Source: Rhynchopus sp. YZ270_cl-10 (taxonomy: Eukaryota). From it: a stretch of DNA of 64,000 nt. Under the pieces are notes generated by a model. That model was given only the letters and a program-made list of their open reading frames with translations. It ran no database searches and had not been told where the DNA came from. How positions within the stretch are numbered: position 1 is the first letter of the stretch; each line of letters opens with the position of its first letter. The translations under genes and the position numbers were made by a program. Positions 20,451-39,800 of this stretch are shown in pieces. The stretch is taken from NCBI GenBank assembly GCA_964035575.1, contig OZ037845.1:62001-126000 (forward strand). Direction: 5' to 3'.

Positions 20451-20700
20451 TGACGAGGGACGAGGGAAATTACGTGGGAAATTACGCGCGCAATGACGTC
20501 GTCACGACGCGGGCACCCCCTCGTAATGACGACGTCATGACGTGGGGTTTTCCTCGTCACGACGACGGCATTACGACGTCATGACGAGGGGTGCCCTCGT
20601 AATTACGAGGGGACCCCTCGTAATTACGAGGGGTGCCCTCGTAATTACGAGGGGGTGCCCTCGTAATTACGAGGGGACCCCTCGTAATTACGAGGGGTGC
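20451..20700. repeat. Left subterminal palindromic repeats (CCCTCGTAATTACGAGGG and CGTCATGACG variants)
   Basis: About five tandem palindromes at 20594-20697; same motifs at the right end. Confidence 0.9.
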
Positions 20701-21385
20701 TCCCGTGGTCATTGTCTGGCTATTGCCTCCCAGGGAAAGGGACTCTCGAATTTTTTTTTTTGCCCCTAGAAAGGGCTAATTTCGACGATTTGAGGCCATT
20801 AAAAGCAAAATTTGATGCTTTTGAGCATCTGTGGGGGTCTAAAACGCGTTTTTGCGGTTTTTTTTCCTCCTTCCCCCATATTTTTCTTTACCGACTACTT
20901 TGGCTCAGCATAAAAAAAATTTTAAATAAAGGTCGAGATTTAGGTAGTGGCCAAGTAAAAGAACACAATTTTTTAATGGACCATCTGGGGGTACACAAAT
21001 ACGCAGTTCTCCTCTCAAAAACCACGGATATTTTACGATATCCTGTGTCCATTATAATACCGTAATCGTAAGAATTCTGGGACGTAACAAATCTGGGACA
21101 ATTGGGAAAAAATCTGAAACTTGGGACATTTTTACGTCCCAGCTTTTTACGATTACGGTATACCATGCAAAAAAGATTGTCCCCCTCCTCCCCCCCCAGT
21201 AGAGAAAAGAAGAAGAAAAAGACAGTTTCTGAGATATGTCTCATCTGTTTTTGATTCATGGCCAATTCTGACCGAATTGCCCTCGGTACGGCGACATCAT
21301 CCTTTTCGGAAAGTTCTCACTCCGTACTGCTTGTCTTTGCGGCGGTATCCTTCTTCCTTTTGTTCTGTCGTAGTCAGTCGGCGTT

Positions 21386-21528
21386 CTTAGTTCCTTAGTT
21401 CCTTAGTTCCTTAGTTCCTTAGTTCCTTAGTTCCTTAGTTCCTTAGTTCCTTAGTTCCTTAGTTCCTTAGTTCCTTAGTTCCTTAGTTCCTTAGTTCCTT
21501 AGTTCCTTGGTTCCATAGTTCCTTAGTT
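21386..21528 (+). repeat. (TAGTTCCT)n 8-bp array, about 17 units
   Basis: Read directly, just upstream of transposon ORF1. Confidence 0.97.
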
Positions 21529-21604
21529 TCTCAGTATTCTTTTTTGTGGTTGTTTACATTTAAACACACAACAGGATTACACAAAACCTCTCTCTCTTTC
21601 CACC

Positions 21605-22789
21605 ATGCCGAGAGTACCTAAGAAGAAGGCACCCAAGGCTCCGGCGAAGAACGGGCCGTCGACGCCTCTCCCTCAGTCCCCACCTGCGACCTCGCCCACC
21701 GATCAAGTGCCAGTTCCCGTCCTTCTCGCGACGCCACCCACCTCCAACCCTTCTTCCCAGACGAGCACCCCTGCGGGGAAAAAGTCGAGTGGTGATACTG
21801 GTACCCCCCTGCAGCGTGCTTTTTGTGAAATTTTTTTAATTCACCACGAGAAGAACACCCTCACCCTCCCCAAGCTCGCTGTTCTGTTCAACCGTTTGTT
21901 CGACAAAGTGTGCCAAGGGCCGCAGATGTCGAAGGCGGTGGCAGCGCGGTTCACGGACTGGCAGGGTCACCTCCAGCAACGTGAGGTGAACCAGCTCAGC
22001 GAGGCCAACAAGCAACTCCCGCGCGCTATTCGTGTGGGGGCAACGACATTCGTTAATGTCGGCTTGCGGGACACCCTTGCGTCGCTCGCCACTGGCCAGC
22101 ACACCAACGCTTTGCAAATCGTGCGCAGCGCTGCCGAAACGGCAGGAAAGTCCGAGGAGCTGCAGGGCCGGATGACGGTCTTGTATGACAAGACACACGG
22201 CGCATCGGCACCCAACACTGAACAGCCTGCATCTTGCAAACGGCCCCTCATCCCGTATCCTCCTCAGAGCGTTTGCGGGGCGAACATGAGGGACGGACAC
22301 CAGGTCTTTTCCGTTTTCTATCTAGTGGGGCCCAATGTCACTATTCAGGAGTGTTCGCTCTCCGGGTCAGAGGTGACACTCTCCATTCTGAGAAACTGCA
22401 AGTTCCAGGGGGAGCTGCAGAACGGAAAGTACCGTTTCTCTTACTGTGTCCCCCCTGACCACGCCATCGACCACACTCGTCTGCCCGAAGCGGCGCTTGA
22501 CGGAGCGATGCTCCTCGTGCATGTTCCCTTGATTTCCCTGGCCGCCCCCAAGCAGGCCATCCTCAGCACTACCGCGTTCGACTACAACGTGGTACTTCCC
22601 CCCGAAGCCGCCCCAACCGTGGCACCGGTGGTTCTGCATACGCCAGAGGGAGAGGGAGAGGGCGAACAGGACCCGGCCAATCAAGCGGATGAATCCGATG
22701 AAGAGGGTGAGGGTGCAGTACATGGTCAACTAGATGATCTTGGGTTCATGTCGATGTCAAGCTTTTCTGTGCAGGTTCAGAAACCCTAG
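21605..22789 (+). CDS. Transposon accessory protein (394 aa): basic/Pro-rich N-terminus, helical domain, putative alpha-crystallin/HSP20-like domain, acidic tail
   Basis: GKYRFSYCVPPDHAID..LPEAALDGAMLLVHVP resembles the ACD C-terminal pattern F.R.F.LP..VD....A.L..GVL.I.VP. Confidence 0.7.
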   Translation: MPRVPKKKAPKAPAKNGPSTPLPQSPPATSPTDQVPVPVLLATPPTSNPSSQTSTPAGKKSSGDTGTPLQRAFCEIFLIHHEKNTLTLPKLAVLFNRLFDKVCQGPQMSKAVAARFTDWQGHLQQREVNQLSEANKQLPRAIRVGATTFVNVGLRDTLASLATGQHTNALQIVRSAAETAGKSEELQGRMTVLYDKTHGASAPNTEQPASCKRPLIPYPPQSVCGANMRDGHQVFSVFYLVGPNVTIQECSLSGSEVTLSILRNCKFQGELQNGKYRFSYCVPPDHAIDHTRLPEAALDGAMLLVHVPLISLAAPKQAILSTTAFDYNVVLPPEAAPTVAPVVLHTPEGEGEGEQDPANQADESDEEGEGAVHGQLDDLGFMSMSSFSVQVQKP

Positions 22790-23058
22790 CCCGTGTCTAA
22801 GTTCTGCATCATTTCTATGGTGTTAAAATTCCCTGTTCAAGTCCCCTTTCTTAATTAATATGTCCTTTTTCTGTCACTTTGACAAGAGAAAAACGCTTTT
22901 TTGTCTTACCTTTACACACCGCAAAGTAAAAGAAGTCTTCCCAACTCCCTCGAGCTTTGATTATATTCCAAACTCCACTCACTCTCCTCTAACTCCCACA
23001 ACTGTTTGCAACACACACAGACCTGTGACACACGTTTTCATTTTTTTTTTTTTTTTAA

Positions 23059-24655
23059 ATGAAATGCAAGAGGGCAGACCCCGAGAGGCAGCGTGAGAAG
23101 CAGAGGGCCCGCACCCTTGGAGACGCGCTGCTCCGTGCGCGCTTACGCCACGGCCTCAGTCGCCACTGCATGGCAAAGCTTGCCCGCGCGATGCACGAGG
23201 CAAACCGCGCAAAGGGCCTCGCTCCTGTGCAGTTCGGTTTGTCTCGCAGCACGATCGCGAAGAGGGAGAGGCTCCTCCAGGCTCAGGCATGGAGGCTGCA
23301 GCAGAACGTGATGCAGGTCACGGCGTTTCTTCTTCGTCGCGTCCCTCGTGTCGCGTTCACCCCTCCGAGCAAGCTCGAGAAGTGGCCCATCACCTCCCTC
23401 CTCAGCATGGACGGCTACACCCCGCGGAACTCCTTGCGTACGAGAAATGCGCGCTTTCGGATGGCTGTGTGCCTACAAGCCGGAGCCTACGGCACCAGCC
23501 CCCTCACCATCATCGATGTCCCGAAGTCGGCGTTCAAGGGCATTGACCTGGGCACGCTTCTCGCTGCATCGCAGCAGACGGTGTACCGTCTGGAGCAAGA
23601 CGGGGGTATTGTGTTCCGGATCCCTATTAATAGGGTCGGTGGGGATCACGCGGAGCTCTGGGTGTTGTTCAAGGGGATGGGAGGAAGGGGTCACAGGAGT
23701 GCATTTTGCTGTACCCGCAGCGAGGATTGGCTCTCCACTTTGCACTCGTGCAAGCGCTGTTCGATTCAAGAGCTCAGCGCACACTTCCATTGCCCCCTCG
23801 CAGCCCACCTCCACACTCCTGCGTACACGGTGACCCCCCCCCCTCCACGACATCAAGGGCATCATCACCATGCTCCTTCATGTCCACTCGGGAGGACCAT
23901 CCGCCATAAAGGATGTCCTCGGGGTGGATTCGTTACAGAACGTGACCACCTCTCTGTGCCGAACAATGTTGGCGCAGCTGCTTGAGGCAGAAGCACCCAC
24001 CGACCCAGAGAGACTTGCTTGCGTGGCAGTTGAGTGCCTGGTCGCCTTTCGGTACCAGGATATCCCCATTCGATACCACGTATCCGGCACCAACGGTCAT
24101 GAGTTCGTGGCCAGTCTCCTTGCGTACCACGTCCTCATATTCGTGTTTGAGTGGTGGTTGCCTGGGTCGACCTGGCACAAAGGTGGTACGTACTTTCATA
24201 GTGCGAATCACTGGTTCGACGTGGAGGATTGCCAACTTTTTAGTCAATCCGATGAAGCGTTCGAGAGGGAGAACGGAGAGCGGAAGCGTCGTGCGTGCGT
24301 GGTCGGTCCCGCCACTTACGAGCGCGACCAGCTCATGTTTGAGATTGCGAACCTGCCCAATAGAGGATTGAGTGTGCTGCCTATGGAGCGTGAGTGCATT
24401 GCGTGGGGATACGACTCTTTCGCTCCTTTCTGCCGTTCGTGTGTCTGCAAGGGTGATTGGGGGAAGCGGCTGACGGCACTGCGTTCCAGACTGGTTTCCT
24501 TCGGCTTCTCACACTCGAGCGCGAGAGATGACGACTTTTGTTATCTTGGCTCTGATCTCCGGCAACGCAGAAACAAGTCCATGCGCGTTTGTGTTTGTGA
24601 CGCGACCAAGGTGAAGTTTGACGCCAAGGTTAAGAAGGCGTTTAATTTGAAATAA
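23059..24655 (+). CDS. RAG1/Transib-like DDE transposase (~531 aa after removing one C from the C10 run at 23834-23843)
   Basis: LLSMDGY (D1), VGGDHAEL..GMGGRGHRSAFCC (D2 and Zn ligands), PPLHDIKG, TYFHSANHW, SDEAFERENGERKR (E); compare RAG1 SCDG, GYDEK, ALHCDIG, NYFHKTLAHV, ASEGNESGNK. Confidence 0.85.
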
Positions 24656-26130
24656 AAGAGATAAATACTTGTGTGCCTCGTATGCGAGGAGAGGTCTCTT
24701 CCGAGCCCATTGTCGCACCCTTTGACCCCGTTACACCAGATTACACCCCATTACACCTGAATTTCCTCGTGGCCAGTACACCCATTATCGAGTCATGGTT
24801 TCAGTTCCCGTAATTTTGCTCTTTTTTTAAATTTTTTCAATTAAAAAATGTCGTCACGAAGATAAAATTTTTTGTACCTTCTGTGCCTGCGTCCCTGAGG
24901 CGTTTGCACTATCAACTTCACCTTTTTTTTTTTTTTGTAAATCAAGCTACTTGACAATGGACATAGAAACGACGGAGGGTGCGTGCCCGCCAGCTTCACT
25001 CATTGTTCTTTCTTCATAGTTCAGCAACAAAAGAATGGGGTAATATTTCTTGTTTTTTTCTGTTCCTTTTTCCACCACACCTCCAAAAACACCCTCACAG
25101 GATGACAGTATACAAAAACATGATAAACGATGAAAACCCGCAACTCTACGCCACAGGTTCTTTCTTCCTCTGGGAAACTCTTTGTCAGTCACTGCTATAG
25201 CCATTTAACCCAGGGAGCATAGCTAGTGCAAGAAATTCGACTTCGGGATCCGGAAAGTCTGTCCTCTGCTCTTGCGGAGGACTAGGCACAAGAAAATATT
25301 GCGTTCCCCCAGGAAACTAATTTTTGTCACAGTAATTTTTGCCCAGGGCATGCTCTTGAAGCATGGCGGCTTGGTGTGAGAAGGGGCAGTGTGTTGTTTT
25401 GTTCTAGATTTCAACGGTTGTTAGAACGAGTCAAGTGGATGCTTATCTAAACACTGACTTTAGTACAGACCCGAGAGATCACACATGACTTTGAGGAAAG
25501 AACAAAGCAATGCATCTGTACCCGCACGCCAGGTTGTAGTTACTTCAGAATTTTCTTAAGTTTGCGCGAAAGAGAGCGGGGGCAACTCCTTTGTATCATA
25601 AGCCCGCTGTGCAGAACAAAGCGAGGAACCTTAAAACACTACCTGCGTGGTGGCTGAATTCACATCCCTTAGAATTACCAGAATTCAGCCTTTGTTGAAG
25701 TAACGTACATACTTGTATGTGCGTGTCACGCTTCTCCATCCTTAAATGGGTGCACTGCTTCACTGCAGCGGGTAAGCCTCTCTCGACTAGTGCAAACTTA
25801 AGAATTTTCTGCTGTAACTTACCAAAATCGATTTTCTTTCACCCCAAACACCCGCAACACCCCACCTGCTACTTCGGTAGCCTGTGTTGTTGGGAGTTGG
25901 TTCTCATGTTGATCCCCAGTGTTTTGCACTGCTTCTTCTGAGCCCAACGCTGTTTGGCCTGTCGACGTAATAAATACGAAGACAGGGCGGCGGTGCCAAC
26001 AATTTTCCGATGATGTAACGTTTTATCTGATTGATTTATCGTTTGATATACCTTGTGTGTGCTACTTCATGCACACCCAAGCAAGGTATATTGAACGGTA
26101 CTTTCAAGCGATACTTCGTTATGTCATTGG

Positions 26131-26438
26131 GGGTACCTGGGTACCTGGGTACCTGGGTACCTGGGTACCTGGGTACCTGGGTACCTGGGTACCTGGGTAC
26201 CTGGGTACCTGGGTACCTGGGTACCTGGGTACCTGGGTACCTGGGTACCTGGGTACCTGGGTACCTGGGTACCTGGGTACCTGGGTACCTGGGTACCTGG
26301 GTACCTGGGTACCTGGGTACCTGGGTACCTGGGTACCTGGGTACCTGGGTACCTGGGTACCTGGGTACCTGGGTACCTGGGTACCTGGGTACCTGGGTAC
26401 CTGGGTACCTGGGTACCTGGGTACCTGGGTACCTGGGT
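26131..26438 (+). repeat. (GGGTACCT)38 8-bp array
   Basis: Read directly; abuts the right subterminal repeats. Confidence 0.98.
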
Positions 26439-26443
26439 GCCCA

Positions 26444-26577
26444 CGTCATGACGACGTCATGACGAGGTAATTACGAGGGGGTGCCCTCGTAATTACCTCG
26501 TCATGACGAGGGCACCCCCTCGTAATTACGAGGGGGTGCCCTCGTCAAGGCACTCGTAATTACCTCGTCATGACGCG
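26444..26577. repeat. Right subterminal palindromic repeats of the DNA transposon
   Basis: CGTCATGACG and CTCGTAATTACGAG motifs matching the left end. Confidence 0.9.
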
Positions 26578-27121
26578 CGTAATGTCATTACGAGTCCATG
26601 GTGTACGAGTTCCATGGGGGGTCGCTACTGGCGTTAATCATCCAAACAAAAAAGACTACAAGAGACAAAACAAAAGTAACAAGAAAGGAACTTCGTATTG
26701 TAAAAAGAAAGCCCCATCCCGCCCCTTCCTCCCCTCCAGAACCAGCTGGGCACCAATACTGGAAATACAGCAAAACCACACAGACTGGACAGTCTATATT
26801 CTCCCCTGCCTCTCCCGTGTTAATGTTCACCCCTCCTTTATCCCAAATTGTCATAGAGCTAAATATAGTTGTATGCCTCGCTTCGCTCGGCAAACAACGA
26901 TACATAATAGGGCGACATGCTGATGACAAATATCTCCCTCGTTTAATTCACTTTTGTGCCTCGTTCTAACTAAACCGGCACATGTACTGATTGTAAGACT
27001 TTTGGCCCTCACTTCGCTCGGACCAAGCGCCTTTCATGTGCATTATAAACGTACCCCCCTTGCCCTGTCCAGTTTGATGTGGAACAAAAAAAGTCGAGCC
27101 TAGGGCTAAGTTGAACAACAC

Positions 27122-27170
<49 letters not shown>

Positions 27171-27343
27171 GGGGCACACACGTTTTGCTACACACTACCC
27201 CATCTTGTCCTTTGCTTCTCCCCTTATCCCCTTTCCCCCACTTGTTTTCCCCCTTGTGTGGGTCCTACCTGTCGCCTCCTAGTGGCGTGTCCTGGGCAGA
27301 GAGAAGGCCGTTGAGTAGTTCCTCTCTGGCGAAGTGCAGGTAG
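27171..27343 (+). ncRNA. HDV-like self-cleaving ribozyme at the element 5' end
   Basis: P1 GGGGCAC 27171-77/GUGUCCU 27287-93 with G1-U wobble; P2 CUACCUGU 27265-72/GCAGGUAG 27336-43; P3 GCC/GGC with L3 UCCUAGU; P1.1 GG 27294-95; P4 AGAGAG/CUCUCU; J4/2 GGCGAA with catalytic C27330. Confidence 0.9.
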
Positions 27344-27403
27344 AGACGTGTATTTTGTCTTCCTTGTCCTTTTGTTTTTTACTGTTTTGACTTTTTTGTT
27401 TTC

Positions 27404-30400
27404 TTGGTGGTGAAGATGTGCAGGTGGAGTGCCCAGCTTTGGGCTATGGTGCTCCTGTGTGGAGCCATGGATGATGGCGGGGGTGACAGCCGAAGCTGGT
27501 GCAGCAACATGAGCAACATGCGCAGCAGCAGCAGCATGAGCAGGAGCAGCATGAGCAGCAGCATGAGCAGCAGCAGCATGTGCAGCAGCAGCATGAGCAG
27601 CAGCAGCATGAGCAGCAGCATCGTGAGCAGGAGCACTGCCATCAACATCAGTACCTCCCACGGTTGCGGCAGGCACGTATCGCGAGTGGGCTCCTCAACA
27701 CCAACTCAGCACTCTCAGGTACCACGTTCTCGCTGCAGCAACATGAGCAGCCATGACTGGAGTGATGGCCTCTATGGCAGCGTCTACTGCAACAATAGCG
27801 GCTCCAACAACCACACCAGCAACATCTACACCTGCAGCAATGGCCGCAAGGGCTTCATGTGCAGCGGCTACAGAAGCTGCAGGTGCACCCCCATTCCCCC
27901 CCATTATTACCCCAAAAAGAGGCCTGTGCCCAACAACCCAAGCGGCTGCAGCTTTGATAGCAGCAACAACAACAACAACTACAACAACGGTGGCAGACAC
28001 TGGATGCGTGGGCGGACACTAGATGTGCGGGCGGACAGCATCAGCAGCAACAACAGCAACTACAACAACAGTGGCAGACAGTGGATGCGCGGGCGGACAC
28101 TAGATGTGCGGGCGGGCAGCATCAGCAGCAACAACAACAACAACTACAACAACAGTGGCAGACAGTGGATGCGCGGGTGGACACTAGATGTGCGGGCGGA
28201 CAGCATCAGCAGCAACAACAGCAACTACAACAACGGTGGCAGACAGCGGATGCGCGGGCGGACACAGGATGTGCGGGCGGACAGTATCAGCAGCAACAAC
28301 AGCAACTACAACAACAACCGTAACACCAGCAACAACAACAGCATCAGCAGCACCTGCAGCAGCACCGACAGCAACAGCAACAGCAGCAGCAGCAACTGCA
28401 GCAACAACACTGTAGGTGGGGGTGAGCGAGGTATGCTGGTGTTCGGGGCCAGCCTTGCGGGGCGAGAAGGACAGAGTTACTGTGTGACGTTACGGGTGTG
28501 GGGGACCTTTATCACCCCCAATGTTCACATGGGGCGTGCAGAACATGGGCTTGGGTTTGACTGGTGGAGCATCCTTTGGGAACGCCTTTCTTCTCTGCGC
28601 CGACCAGACCCCCGCTGGGTAGCCGAGGCACCTGAGTGGGGTGTGTTTGTGTCTTTCGCGGTCCTGGACATGTGGAAGGACAGACGCGCCCCTACCCTCA
28701 GTCACCTCATATTGTGGCTGGTGGGTAGGAGGGGGACCAGGAGGACGCGCCGAGGTCACAGGTCCTTGAACTGGACCAAGGCACAGGCGAGCAGGTTCCG
28801 TCGGCGCAAGGCGCCATGCAAGCGTCCGCCCTCTCAACTTTTCCGCAGGATAAGGGCAGCCGTTGTGAGAGTGGCTTTGCAGTGGGTGGCCATCTGGGCT
28901 CTGGTTTGCGTGGGGTATGAGCTTGGGAGATCGGCGCCACGGGCTTTGGGTTGTGCACTGATCCGGGACGCAGAGCTGCTGAGTGTGCTGCTGAGGAAGG
29001 GGCTCCTACAGGGCCGATACAGAGCACGTAGCGGGAGGCTGTGGTTGCGAGTACTTGCCAGCAGGGTGTGGGTTTTCATGCAGAGGTTGAGGCGACCGGC
29101 GGGGACAGGGGACGGGTGGGAGCTGTCACCTCAGAGCATAAGCCTGGGGCCCGGGGCGCTGGCAGGTGGAGCAGACGGGGACATCAACCCGGAGGAGGCG
29201 GCAAACCTTGACGCATTCCTCGAGGTGCATGGGGGGAAGAGGGTGCCGAACGCAGCCAACGGCGAGTGCATGTACGTGGCCTTACTGGGTAAGAAGAACG
29301 CGCTGTACTTGGATGTCAGCAAAGCACGCACTGAGCTGGCTGACAGAGCGCGGGTCACGAAGGTGAAGACCGGTCTCAGACGCTACTTCGAGACCGAGGC
29401 ACAGCTGTCAAGCTTCATTGACGGCCTCACCAACCCTGAGGTGTGGGGCAACCACCTCACCCTACACCTGGCAGCAAATGCATGGTCCACCACGATAGCG
29501 GTAGTGCAGCCTGGGCCGAATCCAGTGGTGACGATCAACCCCGCAGCCTCATCGAAAGACTTGCGGACGCAGAAAGACCGCCGCGTCAGGGTAGTTTCAC
29601 TCCTCAATAATCACTATGAGGAAGTGCAAATGGACCCAAAGAACGCCCTGGCAATGGTCCAGTCGGCCCCCTTCGCAGAGCTTGACCCGAAAGGCCTAAC
29701 AGCAACACCCATCCCTGCCATGACGAAGGAGTCGCCTTCTCCTCTGGGGGCTGATGCACCGAGGCTCTTCTGCCCTGTTCCGTGTTGCAACGGAAGCAGT
29801 CTACACCGTCCCCAGCCCTTCTCTGTTCCCGGCCTGCGCACACACATCGGTGCACACCTGTCTTCCGGCGACCACATCCCCCACGACACCCTCAACAAGT
29901 TGGGGTTAGGACAGTGTGAAGCGTGTGGGGGGATACGGTCGGCATCGAAGGAGACATGTCTTCAGTGTGCGAAACTGGTAAAGGCGATCGCAAAGCCCAC
30001 ACCCAGGGAACGCACCGCAGTGGAAAAGGCAGACGACGTTGACTTGCCGGAGTGGTGGGAGATAGCTCAAATCCCCATCAGGACAACAGATGCGATCCCC
30101 ACGAGCATCGACCGTCCAGCCGCTGTGGAGTTCACCCAGGCACTTGAGGATGTGGCCGCAGTTGGCGATGAGGCAAGCTGGAAACGTTTGTGCATGTTCG
30201 CGAAGCTGGTCCTACCGGCGAAGCGAGGTGGGAAGCACCTCAAGACGAAGGTGGCAGTCTTGCGGCAGAAGGATGTGGATGAGTGGAGAGAAGGTGAGAT
30301 CGCAGCAATGTGGCGAGCAGCTGCGAATCGCACAGGCGGTACGAAGAAGGAGAAGGAGCGGAAGGAACCAACGTGGGAAGAAAGGGAGAAGGCGATGGTC

Positions 30401-32593
30401 CGGGAGGTGCGGAATGGGAGGATGGCAGCAGGGATGAGCCGCCTCCACAAGGGTGGGCTGGCAGAGCGTACTGAGGAATCCACAGACATCCTCCGCAGAA
30501 AGCACCCCCATGAGGAACCCCAACCTGCCACTTCTCTGCCGGAAATTGCTTCCGAGCCGCTGAAGCCGATCGCCGCCCTCAAAGCCATAAATAGCATGGC
30601 AAAGGGCTCTGCTCCAGGTCCCTTTGGTCTGCGCGGGGATCACCTCAAGGGGTGGATGGTCAAACACCCGGACCTGAACATCTTGCCACTGATGACGCAA
30701 GTCCTGGACCTGCTGCGACGCGGGAAAGCCCCCTCCGAGACAGCTATGTTCATGGCAGGAGCTACTCTGGTGGCGTTAAAGAAGGGTGACCAAGGCGACG
30801 TCCGCCCCATCTCTGCAGGCAACACACTTCGGCGAGTCGTGAGCAAGATCGAGGTGGCGTCTGTGAGGGAAAAGGCACGAGGAGTGCTGCTGCCAGGGAG
30901 ACAAGTTGGGGTGGCGGTGGACGGTGGACTGGAAGCGGCGACAATGGTTGTGGCAGCATACGCAAAACGACACCAGGGGAGCGACAAAGTGATCGTACAG
31001 ATTGACTACGAGAACGCATTCAACAGCATCTTTCGCAAGACTTTTCTGGAAGCCACAAGGAAATATCTCCCGTCCATTTCACCGTGGGTCGAATGGTGCT
31101 ACAACTCCCACACCGGGCTAGTGTATGGTGACGAGATGATCCCATCCACCAGAGGCGCGCAGCAAGGCGACCCCGCAGGGCCCCTACTCTTCTCCCTGGG
31201 GATCAAAGCACTGACAGACGAAGTGCGTGCAGTCCAGGGCATCGACTGTAGCATCTGGTACCTCGATGATGGGACGATCATGGGGAACCCAGAGGCGGTG
31301 GCTCGAGCGCTGGAGTTAGTGAGGACACGCAGTGCGGAGCTGGGGCTGAAGGTGAAGCTGTCAAAGTGTGAAGTCATCGCCCTAGGACAGCAGACTCCGT
31401 TGGACCTGGACAGAGCTGGCCTCCCCGTGTGCAGCCACACCACTGACTTGGCGGAGACTTGCTCAGCCTGTGAAGGAAAAGTGATGAGCGTGAAGTATGG
31501 AGGCTTTGCGTTCCTGGGGGCGCCAATCGGGGACGACGAGTACTGCGAAGCGTACATGGAGAAGAAGGTGGAGGAATTCGCGGTGCAACTGCGTCTGCTG
31601 CAGAAGGTGTCTGACTCGCAGGCTGGACTGACATTACTCCGTCAGTGCGAGGGGTTTGCACGCATGGTTTTCTACATGAGAGCCATTGGTCACGCGTGCA
31701 CCCACAAGTACCTCAGCCAGTACGACAAGGAGGTAGACGCCGCCCTGGCCGCGCTTTTTGGTGATGAGGATGGAGGCCTGCCGGAAGAAGCACGGAGACA
31801 GGCCGCACTGCCATGTAGGGTAGGGGGCATGGGCGTGCGCCGCATCCGCGACCACTGGACTGCAGCAGCCATGGGAGCAAGGAGCGGCCTGCACCAACTG
31901 TGCACCGAACTGGACCCCAGCTTCACCTGGGACGCCGAAGGATGGGAACGGACGGCAACGCTGTACAACGAGCAAGTGGCTGAAGGTGCTAGGATTGACC
32001 CCAAGCTGCAGCCAGCCGTCCCCCTGCGTCAACGTGATCTGTCTGCAGGGATCCTGGAGGAACAATTGCGGGACCTCTTCGTCAAGGGTGATGCGTACGA
32101 CAAGGCGCGTCTCAATTCTCTGGCCCTCCCCCAAGCAGGGTCCTGGCTTACTGCACCCCCCACCTGGGAGCACTACATCCCTCCGATTGCATTCAAGGCC
32201 GCAGCCAGACTCCGCCTCCACCTCCCCATATACGCGGAGGGTGTCTCATGCAGGCAATGCAACCAGCCCATGGACACCAGGGGGGACCACATCTTCGCCT
32301 GCAGAATGGGTGGGCATCGTATACTGCGACATAACTCAGTACGCGATTATGTGTATGGAGCAGCAAATGAGGCAGGTCTGAGCCCCATCCTGGAACCCAA
32401 CCACCTCATCCTGGGCAACAACAAGCCCGCTGACATTCTGCTGTCCACAGGGGTCGGGGAGTCGAGAGGACGAGCTATCGATGTGACTGTGTGTGTGGAC
32501 GCCGACGTCAGCGTCGATGGTGCAGGGTGCCGCAGTCGCGAAGGGGTACGCGGCGACGAAGGCGGAAACTGCCAAGAGGAAGAAGCATGGTGA
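27404..32593 (+). CDS. CRE-A polyprotein part 1: Ser/Asn-rich repeats, hydrophobic segment, OTU1, Zn finger, reverse transcriptase, first half of RLE
   Basis: NGECMYVAL..WGNH..NHYE; CPVPCC..HIGAH; APGPFGLR, VRPISAG, IDYENAFN, QQGDP, YLDD; CRQC..H..C, RHN, PADI. Confidence 0.92.
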   Translation: MVVKMCRWSAQLWAMVLLCGAMDDGGGDSRSWCSNMSNMRSSSSMSRSSMSSSMSSSSMCSSSMSSSSMSSSIVSRSTAINISTSHGCGRHVSRVGSSTPTQHSQVPRSRCSNMSSHDWSDGLYGSVYCNNSGSNNHTSNIYTCSNGRKGFMCSGYRSCRCTPIPPHYYPKKRPVPNNPSGCSFDSSNNNNNYNNGGRHWMRGRTLDVRADSISSNNSNYNNSGRQWMRGRTLDVRAGSISSNNNNNYNNSGRQWMRGWTLDVRADSISSNNSNYNNGGRQRMRGRTQDVRADSISSNNSNYNNNRNTSNNNSISSTCSSTDSNSNSSSSNCSNNTVGGGERGMLVFGASLAGREGQSYCVTLRVWGTFITPNVHMGRAEHGLGFDWWSILWERLSSLRRPDPRWVAEAPEWGVFVSFAVLDMWKDRRAPTLSHLILWLVGRRGTRRTRRGHRSLNWTKAQASRFRRRKAPCKRPPSQLFRRIRAAVVRVALQWVAIWALVCVGYELGRSAPRALGCALIRDAELLSVLLRKGLLQGRYRARSGRLWLRVLASRVWVFMQRLRRPAGTGDGWELSPQSISLGPGALAGGADGDINPEEAANLDAFLEVHGGKRVPNAANGECMYVALLGKKNALYLDVSKARTELADRARVTKVKTGLRRYFETEAQLSSFIDGLTNPEVWGNHLTLHLAANAWSTTIAVVQPGPNPVVTINPAASSKDLRTQKDRRVRVVSLLNNHYEEVQMDPKNALAMVQSAPFAELDPKGLTATPIPAMTKESPSPLGADAPRLFCPVPCCNGSSLHRPQPFSVPGLRTHIGAHLSSGDHIPHDTLNKLGLGQCEACGGIRSASKETCLQCAKLVKAIAKPTPRERTAVEKADDVDLPEWWEIAQIPIRTTDAIPTSIDRPAAVEFTQALEDVAAVGDEASWKRLCMFAKLVLPAKRGGKHLKTKVAVLRQKDVDEWREGEIAAMWRAAANRTGGTKKEKERKEPTWEEREKAMVREVRNGRMAAGMSRLHKGGLAERTEESTDILRRKHPHEEPQPATSLPEIASEPLKPIAALKAINSMAKGSAPGPFGLRGDHLKGWMVKHPDLNILPLMTQVLDLLRRGKAPSETAMFMAGATLVALKKGDQGDVRPISAGNTLRRVVSKIEVASVREKARGVLLPGRQVGVAVDGGLEAATMVVAAYAKRHQGSDKVIVQIDYENAFNSIFRKTFLEATRKYLPSISPWVEWCYNSHTGLVYGDEMIPSTRGAQQGDPAGPLLFSLGIKALTDEVRAVQGIDCSIWYLDDGTIMGNPEAVARALELVRTRSAELGLKVKLSKCEVIALGQQTPLDLDRAGLPVCSHTTDLAETCSACEGKVMSVKYGGFAFLGAPIGDDEYCEAYMEKKVEEFAVQLRLLQKVSDSQAGLTLLRQCEGFARMVFYMRAIGHACTHKYLSQYDKEVDAALAALFGDEDGGLPEEARRQAALPCRVGGMGVRRIRDHWTAAAMGARSGLHQLCTELDPSFTWDAEGWERTATLYNEQVAEGARIDPKLQPAVPLRQRDLSAGILEEQLRDLFVKGDAYDKARLNSLALPQAGSWLTAPPTWEHYIPPIAFKAAARLRLHLPIYAEGVSCRQCNQPMDTRGDHIFACRMGGHRILRHNSVRDYVYGAANEAGLSPILEPNHLILGNNKPADILLSTGVGESRGRAIDVTVCVDADVSVDGAGCRSREGVRGDEGGNCQEEEAW
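27960..28410 (+). repeat. Four ~81-84-bp coding repeats (WMRGRTLDVRADSISSNNSNYNN) in a CAG/CAA-rich tract
   Basis: Read directly in the DNA and translation. Confidence 0.9.
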
Positions 32594-34427
32594 CGCGTGT
32601 GCGGCGGAGCGGCTGGCGTTCACACCCTTCGCCCTGGAGACCACAGGAGGTCTGGGACCCGCGGCGGCGTCGATATGGCAGCAGATGCTCCGTTTCGCAG
32701 CGGACAGGAAGCTTGGGAACAGAGTGGAGATGTCACAGAGGTGGAATTGGGGGCTAGGGACGACGCTGCAGCGACAGATCGGGAAGGCCGCGACGGATCG
32801 AGGGTCTCTGACTGGTTGCCTGAGGGGTCCTCTGCGAGAGCGTGTGGACTTAGATCCCACCGTCGACCCGGAAGAGGGGGACTTGATACGCTTGCCCCCC
32901 GACCATCTACCTAACCTGGAAGTGACAGACGACCACCAGGGAGACATCAGGGTGAGTGCGGAGGAGGAGCCAGAGACAGGCAACGAGAAGGAAACGGCGC
33001 CAGAGACAGCAGCACAGGACCCAACCCCCCACAGCGAACTGGAGGCCAACTTGGTGAAGTGGGGGCTGTCCCGACCGCAGGTGCCCGTGCCGTTCCGAGT
33101 AGGAGACTGTGCGTTCGACGCAGTGTGCTGGTCAGTGCGGAGCTGGAAGGTGGTGACATCGTCGACCCTTCGGTCCCTGGCGGTGGAGAGAGTGAAGAGA
33201 GATGCTGACCTGGCGAGAAATGCGATGCCCGACCTCGCGACCTGGGTGCGATGGATGAGCCTGGCAGGGAACAGGGATCGCAGGTCGTGGGCGGACCAGA
33301 CAGCACTGGCGGGTCTGGCACGGGCTTTGCAGGTAGTCATTGTGGCGGTCGTGTCATCGGACTCTAAGGTGCACATCCATAGACCAGCCAGCAAGTCGAA
33401 CGGGGCCGTAGCAGTGCTGCACACAGGAGCTCACGAGGCTGGCCACTTCTCGCCGTTATGCATGACAGACAACACGTTTGCATATCTGCGAAGCCTTGCC
33501 CCCGACACCCCCCTTCCAGAGATGCAGTGCCACAGCACCGGAGCGCTGTCACGGATGGAGGAGCGCCCGGGGAGACAGGGGGAATTGCTCACGTGCGAAA
33601 ACTGCGCACTCATCACCGAATGTAGTGTCCCCCACTGGTTTTGTAGTTCCTGCGAGCGCACATGGTGTGAGGGATGTGGGAGCGCCAACGCAAAGTGTGT
33701 GCTGAGGGCAAAGCCAGTTCAGCCAGTTCAGCCAGTTCAGCCGACAACATCGCAGACAGTGGGAGGTAGCTACTACAACAGCAACCCAGCTCCCCCACAG
33801 GACGCGGCAACGGAGGTGAAGGAGGAGGTTATGGATGAGGAGGATTCCGCCGACTGCGCCGACCACGACACCACCATGGACAACAACACCGCAACCGCAG
33901 CAGAATCCTTCGTCTGGGGGCCATCAGAGCAGAGCTACAACACCACACCAACAGCTCTGACTGGTGACCACCACTTGGGTTCAGCGAAGACTGGTGGATG
34001 GACGGCTAAGTCCCACGCGGAAAGAAGGACGAAGCTGACCACCCTTGGGACTTCGCGGCGGGCGCAGGGGAACCACACTCGTCGCTCCGGTGTAGTGGAG
34101 GACAGGTCTGCGGAGACCACAGCAAGGCGGCCTTCTCCCCCTATCTCGCGAGGGTCGGATGTGGAGGCGAAAGGGTTAGTCCCACACAGCCAGAAGGAAG
34201 GGGACAGGGTGCCGAGAAATGTCGAAGAGTGGGCGGACTGCTTCTTCCCCAGGGGAGGGACCAGGCGAGAGGGAATGACTCCCTTGGCACCGGAGGTGGC
34301 GTACGAGGCGCTGGACGCGTGGTGGGATCAGCGGGAGGAGCTGGGGCGCGTCGGAGGACGGCAGACGAGTCAGTACGGGGCGCTTAGGGCGGTCCTGGTG
34401 CTGATGATGGAGGCGACCTTCAAATAG
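32493..34427 (+). CDS. CRE-A polyprotein part 2 (+1 frame): second half of RLE, OTU2, Cys-rich Zn finger, tail
   Basis: AETAKRKKH, FTPFALETTGG; GDCAFDAV..WADQ..GHFSPL; CENC..CSSC..CEGC. Confidence 0.88.
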   Translation: MWTPTSASMVQGAAVAKGYAATKAETAKRKKHGDACAAERLAFTPFALETTGGLGPAAASIWQQMLRFAADRKLGNRVEMSQRWNWGLGTTLQRQIGKAATDRGSLTGCLRGPLRERVDLDPTVDPEEGDLIRLPPDHLPNLEVTDDHQGDIRVSAEEEPETGNEKETAPETAAQDPTPHSELEANLVKWGLSRPQVPVPFRVGDCAFDAVCWSVRSWKVVTSSTLRSLAVERVKRDADLARNAMPDLATWVRWMSLAGNRDRRSWADQTALAGLARALQVVIVAVVSSDSKVHIHRPASKSNGAVAVLHTGAHEAGHFSPLCMTDNTFAYLRSLAPDTPLPEMQCHSTGALSRMEERPGRQGELLTCENCALITECSVPHWFCSSCERTWCEGCGSANAKCVLRAKPVQPVQPVQPTTSQTVGGSYYNSNPAPPQDAATEVKEEVMDEEDSADCADHDTTMDNNTATAAESFVWGPSEQSYNTTPTALTGDHHLGSAKTGGWTAKSHAERRTKLTTLGTSRRAQGNHTRRSGVVEDRSAETTARRPSPPISRGSDVEAKGLVPHSQKEGDRVPRNVEEWADCFFPRGGTRREGMTPLAPEVAYEALDAWWDQREELGRVGGRQTSQYGALRAVLVLMMEATFK

Positions 34428-35249
34428 AAGGGCCTCGCGATTGGTTGTGATTGTGGTTTATGTGGGCACTGTTGCCCTTCCCTTCTCTGTTATTTTCCCC
34501 CACCCCAACTTTTGTGTGTAGCAACACCTGTTTAGTTCCCTGTTTCCTTTTTACCCCCAACCCCTCCCATTAGATACATGTGTGTAATCCCCCTGGTGTC
34601 AAGCCCCTTGTATGTAAATTCCAAATCTTCCCCCTCACAGAAAACGTCAGGAGTAAGCCAAGGAGGCGGTTTGTCTGTGGGCGTCGGCCTAGGAGTAAGC
34701 GACGGAGATTTTTTCCCCCACCCCATCCCCTACGAGTTCCATGGGGGGTCGCTACTGGCGTTAATCATCCAAACAAAAAAGACTACAAGAGACAAAACAA
34801 AAGTAACAAGAAAGGAACTTCGTATTGTAAAAAGAAAGCCCCATCCCGCCCCTTCCTCCCCTCCAGAACCAGCTGGGCACCAATACTGGAAATACAGCAA
34901 AACCACACAGACTGGACAGTCTATATTCACCCCTGCCTCTCCCGTGTTAATGTTCACCCCTCCTTTATCCCAAATTGTCATAGAGCTAAATATAGTTGTA
35001 TGCCTCGCTTCGCTCGGCAAACAACGATACATAATAGGGCGACATGCTGATGACAAATATCTCCCTCGTTTAATTCACTTTTGTGCCTCGTTCTAACTAA
35101 ACCGGCACATGTACTGATTGTAAGACTTTTGGCCCTCGCTTCGCTCGGACCAAGCGCCTTTCATGTGCATTATAAACGTACCCCCCTTGCCCTGTCCAGT
35201 TTGATGTGGAACAAAAAAAAGTCGAGCCTAGGGCTAAGTTGAACAACAC

Positions 35250-35296
<47 letters not shown>

Positions 35297-35303
35297 TAAA
35301 AGT

Positions 35304-35305
<2 letters not shown>

Positions 35306-35368
<63 letters not shown>

Positions 35369-36770
35369 CGCTTTTTTTTATCTACATCCAGTGACAGAGG
35401 GGGTACTTACTAGTCAAGCGAGTATGTAAACAGCTAGATGTCCAGACAAGGGCACTTTACTATTGTACTGGCAAGACAGTGCCTGAAAACACAGTTAGTG
35501 GCACTAAAATAGAAAGCATGTGGGACAACTACAACCAACACTTCCCTGCAAATAAGCAAAAGGGTCGTATGTGAGTGCAATTTTTCCCAAAAGGAAAAGG
35601 GGAGGGGATGGGACGGGAGGGTTGCTCTGTCTACCGGTGTAGTTTTATTTTGCTTTGTCTTGGGGAGGGGAGGGGAGGAGAAGGAGGGGATTGAGTGAGC
35701 CGTTTCCTCTGTACCACACAAACAAATAAAAAGGAAGTTCCATAATCTTTTTAGTAGTTTTCTTTTTGGTGAAAATTATTGAGAACTTCTGTAAGTGTGA
35801 CCTGACCCGACTGACTGACACCCAAAGGGGAAAACAACAATAACGCACAACAAAATCAACAACAACAATGGTGGGTCTCGTGCTTACCTGTGGTGGTTTT
35901 GAAAAATGAAAAATGAAATTGACCTTCACAAGGTAAAAATGAAAAACTAAAGGAGTGAAAAAAGGAACTCAAAGGACAAGAGTTCTGTACAAACTCTACT
36001 CTACTGCACAATCTATAAAAGTGGCCCAATGGCTCCTGATGCCACTGGCCTGGCTCTTAGACAGGTCTTACTCCGAGACTGCCCTCTACCCTCGTCCAAG
36101 GGCTAAGGGCCGTCGCTGGGGTAGACCCGTCCTAGCCAGCAGCCAACCAAAACTATTAACAAAAGGAAGGGGAAAGGAAAGGGGGGGGGGCATGAAAAGA
36201 ACAAAAAACACAAAATAAAAAGGGTTTTTAAAAATAAACATGGGGCAAACTGTCATTCTCTACACGCATCTACACACACACTCTCTCCCTCTAACTCTCA
36301 CTCTAATGCCTCTTATTCCTCTTATTCCCCTTTTGCCCCTGCTTTCCTCCGCTCTGTCTCCCCTTCTGTCCACCACCGCGACCATTGCGCCCTCTCTGCA
36401 CCACCTGGGGCGAGAGCACATGCTGCGTCGCTTGTGCCACTGCGTCGGTGAACACGTTCGACGTGTTGGACCTACCCTGAGCTGCATGGCGCTGGGGTCC
36501 TTTGGGAGCTGGGGAAGGAGCAGGTTGGGCGGAGGAGGTTGCATTGCCACGGCCTGCCGATGAGGAGGAGGAAGAAGTGGAGACTGCAGGTTGGGCGATG
36601 GAGGTTGTAGTGCCACGGCCTGCAGAGGTGGAGGAAGAAGAAGAAGAAGAGGAGGCTTGAGGTTGTCGGCCTATTCCCTCTCGAGCCGCTCGTGCCTCAT
36701 TCTCCCTCCTTGTACTCTCCGCTGCAAAGGCCTGCCCCCTACTGCTCCGGTTGTCCGTCAGGGCATGCAA
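35306..36770 (-). mobile_element. 5'-truncated 1.4-kb copy of CRE family B with 14-16-bp TSD
   Basis: Poly(T) 35306-35368; near-identical to 36883-38295; flanked by (AA)CCTGTAAAAGTCAT at 35291-35306 and 36769-36784. Confidence 0.9.
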
Positions 36771-36804
36771 CCTGTAAAAGTCATATGGGGCATACTTTTG
36801 CGCC

Positions 36805-36807
<3 letters not shown>

Positions 36808-36857
<50 letters not shown>

Positions 36858-39800
36858 GTGTTGTTCAACTTAGCCCTAGGCTCGCTTTTTTTATCCACAT
36901 CCAGTGACAGAGGGGGTACTTACTAGTCAAGCGAGTATGTAAACAGCTAGATGTCCAGACAAGGGCACTTTACTATTGTACTGGCAAGACAGTGCCTGAA
37001 AACACAGTTAGGGGCACTAAAATAGAAAGCATGTGGGACAACTACAACCAACACTTCCCTGCAAATAAGCAAAAGGGTCGTATGTGAGTGCAATTTTTCC
37101 CAAAAGGAAAAGGGGAGGGGATGGGACGGGAGGGTTGCTCTGTCTACCGGTGTAGTTTTATTTTGCTTTGTCTTGGGGAGGGGAGGGGAGGAGAAGGAGA
37201 AGGAGGGGATTGAGTGAGCCGTTTCCTCTGTAACACACAAACAAATAAAAAGGAAGTTCCATAATCTTTTTAGTAGTTTTCTTTTTGGTGAAAATTTTTG
37301 AGAACTTCAGTAAGTGTGACCTGACCCGACTGACTGACACCCAAAGGGTAAAACAACAATAACGCACAACAAAATCAACAACAACAATGGTGGGTCTCGT
37401 GCTTACCTGTGGTGGTTTTGAAAAATGAAAAATTGAAATTGACCTTCACAAGGTAAAAATGAAAAACTAAAGGAGTGAAAAAAGGAACTCAAAGGACAAG
37501 AGTTCTGTACAAACTCTACTCTACTGCACAATCTATAAAAGTGGCCCAATGGCTCCTGATGCCACTGGCCTGGCTCTTAGACAGGTCTTACTCCGAGACT
37601 GCCCTCTACCCTCAGAGCCTCGTCCAAGGGGTAATGGCCGTCGCTGGGGTAGACCCGTCCTAGCCAGCAGCCAACCAAAAATATTAACAAATAGGAAGGG
37701 GGGCGGAAAGGGGGGAAAGGGGGGGCAAACCCCAAAGGATGAAAAGAACAAAAAACACAAAATAAAAAGGGTTAAAAATAAACATGGGGCAAACTGTCAT
37801 TCTCACACACTCTCACCCTCTAACTCTCTAACTCTCTAATTCTTTTTATTCCCCTTTTTCCCCTTCCTTCCTCCGCTCTGTCTCCCCTTCTGTCCACCAC
37901 CGCGACCATTGCGCCCTCTCTGCACCTCCTGGGGCGAGAGCACATGCTGCGTCGCTTGTGCCACTGCGTCGGTGAACACGTTCGACGTGTTGGACCTACC
38001 CTGAGCTGCATGGCGCTGGGGTCCTTTGGGAGCTGGGGAAGGAGCAGGTTGGGCGGAGGAGGTTGCATTGCCACGGCCTGCCGATGAGGAGGAGGAAGAA
38101 GTGGAGACTGCAGGTTGGGCGATGGAGGTTGTAGTGCCACGGCCTGCAGAGGTGGAGGAAGAAGAAGAAGAAGAGGAGGCTTGAGGTTGTCGGCCTATTC
38201 CCTCTCGAGCCGCTCGTGCCTCATTCTCCCTCCTTGTACTCTCCGCTGCAAAGGCCTGCCCCCTACTGCTCCGGTTGTCCGTCAGGGCATGCAACGTCGA
38301 CTTTGCCTTGCACTTTTCCTGAACCGACCACTCATGCAAACCCACCACCTTCATCACCTCATACCACTGAGTGAAAGTAGCGGTAGAGAGGGGGAGTGAC
38401 AACAAGGGTCTGCCATCCTGTTTCTCTCCCTGACGGTAGTGGAACAGGGAGATCCACTTCGTCACAGAAGAAGGCACCGGCGACCCCATGGTGAGGCACG
38501 GGAAAAGACCCCCCCTCTCCGTCCGCTCCTCCTCCGTCCACATCCAAGCCTCGCTCTGCGCCCTCAGCAATTCCCTCACCCTCGCTTGCTTCTTCTGGTC
38601 AGGGATGCCTTCCACTGACAGAGAAAGCGAGCGATCCGCCCCCTCCATCGCGGTGTCGAGGTCCTCCTCCTGCTCCTGCTCATCATCATCCATCTCCTCC
38701 ACCTTCACACGCACCTCGGAGTCTGCCGCCTCGGCCTGTCGCCCCACCTCCTCCTCCAGCTGATCCCGAGAAGGGGTTCCCCAGCTGACCCTGCCTTCCC
38801 GAACGACGATGACCGCGCTGGTCTTGCCCCAGGTATCGCAGTATCCGGCCTCCCCTGCTATCTTCCTAACCGCCTGACGGGCGACCACCGACTCCGGGCA
38901 ATCACCGTCCCCCTCCCCGTTCCCACTCCACGGCTGCTGTGTCGCCCAGCAGTACAGGAACTCGCCCGGGCACGGAGAAGCACCTTGAGGACCAAAGAGA
39001 GCCATCCAGTCGCCGACACAGTCAGGTTCGAGTCCTTCAGGGTCGTCGCCCACCGCTCTCCGCACCGCATGGCAGGGGAGGAATAGCCGCCCTTCGCACA
39101 CCACCCCAAAGCACCGCCCGTATGCCACCATGCGTTCTGCCTCCAGCTGTCGGGAGAGGTTCACCGCCGTCAACAACAGAGTGGTCGCCTTCTGCTCCGA
39201 CTCATGCTTAGCTGCGATGGCGTAATGCCTCTCGCAGCGTTGCCTGTCATACTCCGCCCGGAGCGACTCTCCTGCTTCGGGGTGCCGATCGCAGTCTTCC
39301 AAGTACTGCGCATGCATCTTCTTCGCGTCCTCTGCGAGTTCCCGCTTGTGCCTGGCGGTCAGCTCCTCCACACGATGCCTGTCCGCCGCCTTCGCCTGGT
39401 CCAGACGCACATTCTGTTCCTCCAGGAAACGACTCAACTCCTGCTGGCGGTCGCCAAAAGTGCCCCGAAGCGCGGCCAAATCCGGTCCCCACGACCGACG
39501 ATGCTCCCGCCGTACCTCCAGGGCTTGCTGCCACGCGTCCGACGCACGCTGCAACGCTTCCTTCTTCACCTGGTCCGCCTTTTGTTGTTGCTGCTTCTGC
39601 TGTTTCCGTTGCTTCTCGTGCTTCTGCTGCTTCTGTTCTGCCTGCTGCCCCTCTTCGCCCGCCATTGGCATGTCTACCTCCTCGACGTCCTCGCCCTCGG
39701 GAGCTGGCACTGCTGGAGAAGGAGCCCGTTTAGGTGGTGGGTCTCCGCTCCCCTCCGCAGAGGCAGCCTGAGCCGGAACATTCGAGTGCAAAAAAGACAG

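Follow-up and report, generated by a model that had tools for sequence, protein, structure and literature searches.

The window analyzed here is a 64,000-nucleotide stretch of contig OZ037845.1 (positions 62,001 to 126,000 of the forward strand; assembly GCA_964035575.1) from Rhynchopus sp. YZ270_cl-10. Eukaryotic mobile elements crowd these 64 kb, which also contain two long host-like open reading frames (ORFs). Among the mobile elements are two divergent families of retrotransposons without long terminal repeats (non-LTR retrotransposons) and with a restriction-like endonuclease (RLE), designated family A (plus strand) and family B (minus strand), which were delimited by self-BLAST of the window and by translations with position rulers. 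In both families, two OTU-like cysteine protease domains (OTU1 and OTU2) flank the reverse transcriptase (RT) and the RLE. The parts of A2, the full-length copy of element A, and of element B are as follows.

~27171-35292, plus strand: element A, full-length copy A2, with a 5' region, one long ORF with one break, a 3' untranslated region (3'UTR), and poly(A).
28433-29170, plus strand: A leader, from the conserved ATG up to (L)AGG; Arg/Trp-rich, with hydrophobic segments; DNA identity with B is 79% in its 5' part (28410-28990).
29159-29170, plus strand: A L-A-G-G, a ubiquitin-tail-like LxGG and candidate self-cleavage site, with the OTU1 Cys 33 residues further on.
29171-29653, plus strand: A OTU1, with Cys at 29267-29269, His at 29612-29614, and Glu at His+2 (29618-29620).
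29771-29968, plus strand: A N-terminal zinc fingers, CCHH-type, then CxxC-x10-CxxC; read from the translation.
30779-31498, plus strand: A reverse transcriptase (Pfam RVT_1, E 3.2e-18).
32249-32660, plus strand: A CCHC motif and RLE (RHN...KPAD...IDVTV...K); read from the translation.
32488-32497, plus strand: A frame break, a length change in a (TG)n run, common to the second copy, A1 (18985-18994).
33036-33491, plus strand: A OTU2, with Cys at 33108-33110, W-A-D at 33288-33296, and His at 33444-33446.
33594-33698, plus strand: A Cys-rich finger, CxxC-x9-HxxCxxC-x4-CxxC...C, FYVE-like.
34221-34424, plus strand: A C-terminal conserved motif, EW..(L/C)F.P ... W(W/Y).
36808 to ~46659 (5' limit approximate), minus strand: element B, with the same architecture as A; poly(A) at 36808-36855.
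44548-44559, minus strand: B L-T-G-G, before B OTU1.
44050-44532, minus strand: B OTU1, with Cys at 44442-44440, His at 44091-44089, and Glu at His+2.
40035-40547, minus strand: B OTU2, with Cys at 40424-40422 and His at 40070-40068.
39840-39923, minus strand: B Cys-rich finger, after B OTU2.

The order in both A and B is leader, OTU1, zinc fingers, RT, CCHC/RLE, variable acidic linker, OTU2, Cys-rich finger, low-complexity stretch, and C-terminal motif, and, decay breaks aside, the domains are read in one frame. An earlier note on this DNA had described two OTU-like domains flanking the RT-RLE, and our translations agree with this description. The RT (Pfam RVT_1) and the CCHC/RLE lie between the two domains, and the four OTU motif sets (N-terminal and after the endonuclease, in both families) are found where the note had placed them. 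The catalytic Cys and His are kept in all four window domains, and in A (33594-33698) as in B (39923-39840), OTU2 is followed by a Cys-rich finger.

In the AlphaFold (AF2) model, the A finger is confidently folded, with three short strands and a helix. Of the FYVE motif R(R/K)HHCR, the finger keeps the H-x-x-C-x-x-C core alone. All scores against FYVE (PF01363) are under the cut-off of 27.8 bits (P0019 is the best, with 21.3 bits; the B finger gives E 0.0077), the A finger alone has no Pfam FYVE match, and a profile search of PDB sequences matched the finger to the FYVE domain of EEA1 at E 0.028. The C-terminal motif, which has no Pfam match, is present in A, B, P0011, P0014, P0015, P0016, P0020, and P0029. 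A further motif, (G)GS(Y/F)YN(S/N)xNPAPP or SGY(S/Y)NTxPAL, occurs after the finger (33747-33800) in A, P0029, and P0014, three times in the last of these.

As for the class of the elements, the RT profile matches L1 ORF2p and the R2 RT among PDB sequences. The RLE block aligns to the R2 RLE in 9nl3 and 9dou with its motifs lined up, the match of the stretch alone being weak (E 0.15 to 0.19). Neither an apurinic/apyrimidinic endonuclease (APE) nor an RNase H was found by Pfam in the A and B ORFs, and hallmarks of non-LTR elements are present: absence of LTRs, a 3' poly(A), and 5'-truncated copies (A1 and, for family B, B'). The best named relative is P0066 from Diplonema papillatum, annotated as "Retrotransposable element SLACS 132 kDa protein," which is 38% identical over 99% of the RT-RLE (E 6.5e-125).

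The CRE clade consists of CRE1/2, SLACS, and CZAR, and spliced-leader insertion is typical of its trypanosomatid members, not of the whole clade. The only pointer to CRE membership of A and B, which the earlier note had called CRE retrotransposons, is the SLACS annotation of P0066, and the Diplonema genome paper lists SLACS-like gene models (PMC10161547). Within the window, the A and B copies are not located in spliced-leader genes; they lie instead head-to-tail at each other's poly(A). No Rfam family reached its threshold and no tRNA was detected in the window, so neither spliced-leader RNA, rRNA, nor a ribozyme accounts for the conserved 5' module that A and B share. Residues ~1640-1773 of P0066 include N-S-C-Y-L-Q-A-A-L-N, which by eye has the look of a ubiquitin-specific protease (USP)-type Cys box, in a region with no Pfam match. 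P0066 is only a lead in this respect, hinting that other relatives may carry a different deubiquitinase.

OTU1 of family A scores 25.9 bits alone against Pfam OTU (PF02338; curated cut-off of 23.3 bits), 22.3 bits within the long window ORF, and 30.1 bits in the intact relative P0062. B OTU1 is related to A OTU1 by BLASTP (E 1e-20, 34% identity). A model of OTU1 predicted by AF2 from 8 aligned sequences had a predicted local distance difference test score (pLDDT) of 75.7 and a predicted template modeling score (pTM) of 0.77. In a Foldseek comparison with the PDB, its best match was OTUD5 (3tmp, E 6.3e-7), followed by OTUD1, OTUD3, yeast Otu1, and nairovirus OTUs, with 59 matches at E<=0.001 and 3tmp, 4bop, and 4bou as the top entries; viral OTU proteins in BFVD are matched as well. 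The Cys, the His, and an acidic residue (E/D) at His+2 are kept in every relative that covers those positions.

When PDB sequences were searched with a profile of the whole element alignment, the RT and RLE were matched and no OTU chain was. OTU2 is linked to the OTU family by profile-profile comparison, by BLASTP to a free-standing protein, P0024, and by fold comparison. The OTU2 domains of A and B are related to each other (BLASTP E 2e-22, 33% identity), and a HMMER scan of 1.84 billion representatives with the A and B OTU2-finger alignment retrieved 18 proteins only. Among these is P0024, a protein of 244 amino acids (aa) that scores 50.8 bits against Pfam OTU and matches A OTU2 from the Cys box through the His box (BLASTP E 2e-10). 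When the OTU2 and OTU1 profiles were aligned with hhalign, the probability was 93.7% (E 1.9e-7, score 48.3) and the Cys, W-x-D/G, and His boxes lined up, against scores of 16.3 for the best of 100 column-shuffled controls and 8.0 for the reversed control.

The AF2 model of A OTU2 with its finger, made from 16 aligned sequences, had a pLDDT of 88.7 and a pTM of 0.76. In the Foldseek comparison, 28 PDB entries matched at E<=0.001, with yeast Otu1, the OTU of Crimean-Congo hemorrhagic fever virus (CCHFV), OTUD3, and OTUD2 ranking first; the best entries are 3c0r, 5v5i, 4bou, and 4boz, and the rows listed to rank 50 are all OTU-family enzymes. For both domains, then, the predicted models, which are not solved structures, have OTU deubiquitinases as their best PDB matches, consistent with the OTU fold that had been proposed for them. 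The OTU2 Cys is kept in all families except in the N-terminally cut P0019 and in an extra degenerate copy in P0016, and the His is kept in all families except P0020. This extra copy (P0016 residues 826-925) is an OTU2-like domain with its own finger that stands, after the RLE, ahead of a good OTU2 and has lost the catalytic Cys. The OTU2 hidden Markov model (HMM) scores 53.6 bits against P0024, compared with 12.5 bits for the OTU1 HMM. OTU2 is thus nearer to a free-standing protein than to OTU1, which makes two separate captures likelier than an internal duplication, and OTU1 and OTU2 were probably acquired separately.

Local OTU1 and OTU2 HMMs were used to search for both domains in predicted proteins. 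Both were present in one uninterrupted protein in 7 of 60 proteins scanned (P0022, P0028, P0029, P0035, P0041, P0042, and P0058) and in 2 of 41 RT-RLE relatives scanned (P0062 and P0065), and these nine double-OTU proteins correspond to five clusters at 90% identity. P0062 (2125 aa, from a cluster of 72 members) is 99.4 to 99.7% identical to window A, and P0065 (2570 aa, from a cluster of 187 members) is 98.8 to 99.9% identical to window B, with a gap (residues 878-936) at ~42725-42895. Intact relatives read straight through at the (TG)n break of A. In contigs of three public runs from three studies, the TG run at this position is 4 letters shorter and in frame, and 29100-33700 is covered colinearly by one contig of run X1; the fourth run examined, X7, gave no contig with the in-frame TG form. 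The near-identical uninterrupted ORFs and the in-frame contigs indicate that the double-OTU layout is native to families that are, or recently were, active. Near-identical copies of 29100-33700 were also observed in public runs filed under several organism labels (A to G), from 7 studies.

Among the 41 RT-RLE relatives scanned, 6 have an OTU1 or OTU2 match and 35 do not. One relative, P0063, has the arrangement RT-RLE-OTU2, with a gene model that starts inside the RT. Constraint was estimated as identity between distant families, with gaps counted. The values were 23 to 30% for OTU1, 29 to 35% for OTU2, 45 to 49% for the RT, 21 to 34% for the N-terminal zinc fingers, 9 to 29% for the three linkers, and 4 to 13% for the post-finger stretch, indicating that the OTU domains are conserved well above the spacers and less than the polymerase. 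Word-based protein searches gave 2 matches for the segment from OTU1 to RLE and 1 for OTU1 alone, and a search of the ESM Atlas gave unnamed RT clusters only, all <0.9.

In 7 of 8 families, an (L/M)xGG motif is found at one alignment position, ~33 residues before the OTU1 Cys. Its forms are LAGG (A), LTGG (B), LRGG (two subfamilies), MSGG, MQGG, and MRGG (P0029 family), which fit the P4-P1 pattern of the ubiquitin C terminus. The tail of ubiquitin ends in LRGG, and viral proteases of the deubiquitinase type cut after LxGG. Along the full-length alignments, no other conserved GG pair stands at a domain boundary; the three others sit within the RT-thumb, CCHC, and post-RLE blocks. The conserved position of (L/M)xGG directly before OTU1 suggests self-cleavage.

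These results can be brought together in a reading to which we assign a probability of roughly 55%, namely, that A and B encode, in one ORF, two separately captured OTU-fold proteases that flank the core of an RLE-type long interspersed nuclear element (LINE) and are predicted to be active isopeptidases of the ubiquitin type, with OTU1 acting in self-processing and OTU2 in trans. OTU1, with its canonical Cys-His-Glu/Asp triad, would cut its own polyprotein in cis after LxGG, freeing the Arg-rich hydrophobic leader from the enzyme body, and may deubiquitinate as well. OTU2 with the FYVE-like finger would remove ubiquitin in trans from the protein or ribonucleoprotein (RNP) of the element or from host factors at the integration site, an action by which the element would be protected against ubiquitin-dependent degradation or damage signaling. 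The self-processing role of OTU1 is proposed by the precedent of arterivirus and tymovirus proteases of the OTU type. PLP2 of equine arteritis virus (EAV) and PRO of turnip yellow mosaic virus (TYMV) are described as OTU-type proteases that mature polyproteins and also deubiquitinate, TYMV PRO doing so without a third catalytic residue (PMC3968130). As to the putative division of labor between processing and deubiquitination, which the earlier note had put forward, one feature of the sequence speaks for it, the (L/M)xGG before OTU1.

Several observations weigh against the layout or against this reading of it. The window copies themselves are broken, A by the (TG)n frameshift in both copies and B in the N-terminal part of the RT (~42725-42895). 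Pfam OTU, which recovers A OTU1 above its cut-off (25.9 versus 23.3 bits), does not do so for the other three domains that had been called OTU-like; A OTU2 stays under the cut-off (13.7 bits, E 0.09), and neither OTU domain of B has a match. Residues 21-31 of the OTU1 model have a pLDDT of just ~74 to 78. At His+2, OTU2 has S, E, T, or V, and without a conserved acidic residue there its activity may be weak or may depend on a residue elsewhere. In P0064 (34 members), OTU1 is present and OTU2 was not found, so that OTU2 appears to be dispensable for some relatives. The P0091 family is without (L/M)xGG. In the P0029 family, all three full models begin at M-R-G-G and there would be no leader to release, which argues against a universal processing role. 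Finally, the leader has the composition (R, W, G, and V) expected from translated GC-rich noncoding DNA, its coding signal is modest, and distant families share just its last ~25 residues.

The last two points are what would be expected if both OTUs were trans-only deubiquitinases that perform no self-processing, with (L/M)xGG being structural or lying near the start codon and the "leader" being an untranslated open 5' region. The nairovirus OTU, which is described as performing no polyprotein cleavage (PMC3968130), would be a precedent. We regard this explanation as plausible but rather unlikely. Against it, the leader shows modest signs of being translated, and (L/M)xGG resembles the ubiquitin tail in its P4-P1 positions. 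The five insertions or deletions between the A and B leaders (24, 3, 12, 3, and 6 nucleotides [nt]) are all multiples of 3. Changes are more frequent at third codon positions (0.20 versus 0.12 and 0.115), and of the changed codons, 26 of 67 are synonymous in the ORF frame, an enrichment over the two alternative frames (8 of 64 and 10 of 66). An ATG conserved between A and B is where the P0065 gene model begins, and the gene models of 7 of 8 families have 70 to ~600 in-frame residues upstream of OTU1. The leader is rich in Arg and Trp and contains one to three hydrophobic segments of 19 residues.

A different possibility concerns OTU2, which might be a catalytically weak or dead ubiquitin-binding module that acts as a reader together with the zinc finger, leaving OTU1 as the sole enzyme. 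The variable His+2 position, the Pfam scores under the cut-off, the Cys-less extra copy in P0016, and the loss of the His in P0020 would fit such a module. On the other hand, the Cys and His are kept in almost all families at an overall identity of just 29 to 35%, and TYMV PRO is described as working without a third residue (PMC3968130); we consider the reader role improbable. We give hardly any credence to the double-OTU layout being an artefact, in which an OTU-bearing element and an ordinary LINE were joined by nested or chimeric insertion or by fusion of gene models. The window is dense in mobile elements (a Helitron, a transposon with terminal inverted repeats [TIRs] inside A1, and tandem copies), which could give rise to such an arrangement, but the same order and spacing occur in two window families whose bodies are not similar in DNA, both domains are present in nine predicted proteins that are uninterrupted and represent five clusters, and the run X1 contig is colinear over 29100-33700.

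The reading with a self-processing OTU1 and an OTU2 acting in trans can be taken further, to a LINE that resembles the replicase polyprotein of an RNA virus. In such an element, a basic, membrane-anchor-like leader, serving as a substitute for ORF1, would be freed by OTU1 at LxGG, and the separately captured OTU2 with the FYVE-like finger would act on the integration complex or on host sensors by removing their ubiquitin. We put this forward tentatively and hold it to be doubtful in its full form. If true, it would be the first retrotransposon that matures its protein by a deubiquitinase-type protease and has a dedicated anti-ubiquitin module.

The remaining copies of A and B, the repeats in their 5' regions, and the other features of the window are as follows.

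14857-20424, plus strand: element A copy A1, 5'-truncated, with additional frameshift(s).
26604-27170, plus strand: A1 3'UTR and poly(A), cut off from the A1 body by a DNA transposon; adjoins the A2 5' end head-to-tail.
35308-36771, minus strand: B', a 5'-truncated B copy, head-to-tail behind B; its poly(A) is seen as poly(T) at 35308-35369.
27959-28321, plus strand: CAG/CAA-rich 165-bp tandem repeats in the A 5' region (self-BLAST 92.9%, offset 165).
45578-46614: analogous CAG/CAA-rich repeats upstream of B, in a roughly 96-bp register.
20425-26603, inside the A1 3'UTR: DNA transposon of ~6.18 kb, with TIRs of ~25-46 nt and a TA target duplication.
1902-7727, plus strand: Helitron ORF of 1941 aa, with Helitron_like_N, PIF1 helicase, and Pif1 2B domains.
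49012-56946, minus strand: host-like ORF of 2644 aa, Cys-rich, with internal duplications.
57398-64000, minus strand: host-like ORF of >2200 aa, Ser/Arg-rich, with a RanBP-type zinc finger (E 6e-4).

By self-BLAST, A1 is 99.77% identical to A2 across 5135 bp and is without the A2 segment 33486-34288, which contains the finger and the C-terminal part. The A2 3'UTR block (34731-35292) corresponds to the 3' end of A1 (26604-27164) at 99.5% identity. The resulting 562-bp direct repeat around A2 was considered as a long target-site duplication and rejected, because A1 carries it too, split off by the TIR transposon with its TA duplication; it is the 3'UTR and poly(A) of A itself. B' is 93.5% identical to 36808-38295, and residues 2419-2570 of P0065 map to B' at 96.7%. 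Poly(A) runs are present at 35250-35292 (A2), 27122-27170 (A1), and 36808-36855 (B). At the junctions (27122-27175, 35250-35369, and 36772-36855), copies adjoin head-to-tail or tail-to-tail at each other's poly(A): the A1 poly(A) abuts the A2 5' end, the A2 poly(A) is opposite that of B' across 15 bp, and B' lies 36 bp behind B. This suggests either that poly(A) or the tails of the elements themselves are preferred as targets or that tandems form in the course of reverse transcription.

The bodies of A and B have no common DNA similarity by self-BLAST, whereas their ends do. The 5' module at 28341-28987 has 79% DNA identity to 45617-44986, and the last ~94 nt of the 3' tail (27076-27169 versus 36901-36810) are 96.8% identical; the proteins are just ~30 to 45% identical despite these near-alike end modules. 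Exchange of 5' end modules is known for the 5' ends of L1, and the shared ends of A and B look like an exchange of end modules between the families. The tandem repeats of A and B are located upstream of the conserved 5' module and are open in the ORF frame; they may be promoter monomers or coding sequence. A third family (P0022 and P0042) has similar repeats.

The DNA transposon contains internal palindromic 'CGTAATTACGAGGGG' repeats, and its ORFs (21527-22789, 23059-23985, and 23834-24655) have no Pfam match. No OTU was found by Pfam in the Helitron. Besides the RanBP-type zinc finger, the two host-like ORFs have no Pfam match.

In the usual view, LINEs require no more than a reverse transcriptase, an endonuclease, and a protein that binds RNA. 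The occurrence of Ulp1, Josephin, and, in one preprint, OTU domains indicates that ubiquitin-system enzymes have been added in some LINE lineages. Families A and B are favorable for studying the function of such enzymes, being abundant, with intact copies and with two OTUs that differ in their features, OTU1 having a full triad beside LxGG and OTU2 a Cys-His pair with a zinc finger. The question at stake is whether retrotransposon deubiquitinases serve protein maturation, protection from ubiquitin-based control by the host, or both.

Our literature search retrieved no retrotransposon with two OTUs, and no OTU on a CRE/SLACS-type or RLE element besides one preprint describing a 2A-peptide context, although Repbase may contain a catalogued double-OTU consensus; this agrees with the earlier note, whose author knew of no double-OTU CRE. 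The double-OTU layout appears to be new, whereas LINEs with single cysteine proteases of the ubiquitin system were already known. CRE/SLACS-like elements have the same core as A and B, with N-terminal zinc fingers and RT followed by CCHC and RLE; P0066 and P0067 of Diplonema papillatum differ in that no OTU was detected in them by Pfam or by the OTU1 and OTU2 HMMs. NeSL and Utopia-1_TSP are described as RLE LINEs with an N-terminal Ulp1-like protease (PMC4640811), and Dualen/RandI LINEs as having a Josephin-related protease (PMC9977147). According to these descriptions, they resemble A and B as RLE non-LTR elements with a ubiquitin-like-specific cysteine protease domain and differ in having Ulp1 or Josephin, one per element, in contrast to two OTUs, LxGG, and a FYVE-like finger. 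The preprint reports Josephin on Dualen-type ORF2p and one ORF2p of Symbiodinium necroappetens with an N-terminal OTU (bioRxiv 10.64898/2026.06.17.732966). As described there, the latter is set apart from A and B by its one OTU, a C-terminal second RT, and a 2A-like peptide context, and the available description mentions no second OTU after the RLE.

OTU domains (pfam02338) have also been described in Helitrons and Ginger1 elements (PMC2836005), which, as reported, are DNA transposons with one OTU each, in contrast to the two OTUs on a retrotransposon in A and B. The PLP2 of arteriviruses and the PRO of tymoviruses are, from their description, similar to the proteases of A and B in having an OTU fold within a replicase polyprotein and dual roles as protease and deubiquitinase (PMC3968130), and a third catalytic residue is missing from TYMV PRO, as it seems to be from OTU2. 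They belong to RNA viruses without RT or RLE, and cleavage in A and B is proposed from the LxGG motif alone. This raises the possibility that a strategy resembling that of viral replicases, in which proteases of the OTU type both mature a polyprotein and remove ubiquitin, is also used by families A and B, which have two OTU domains.

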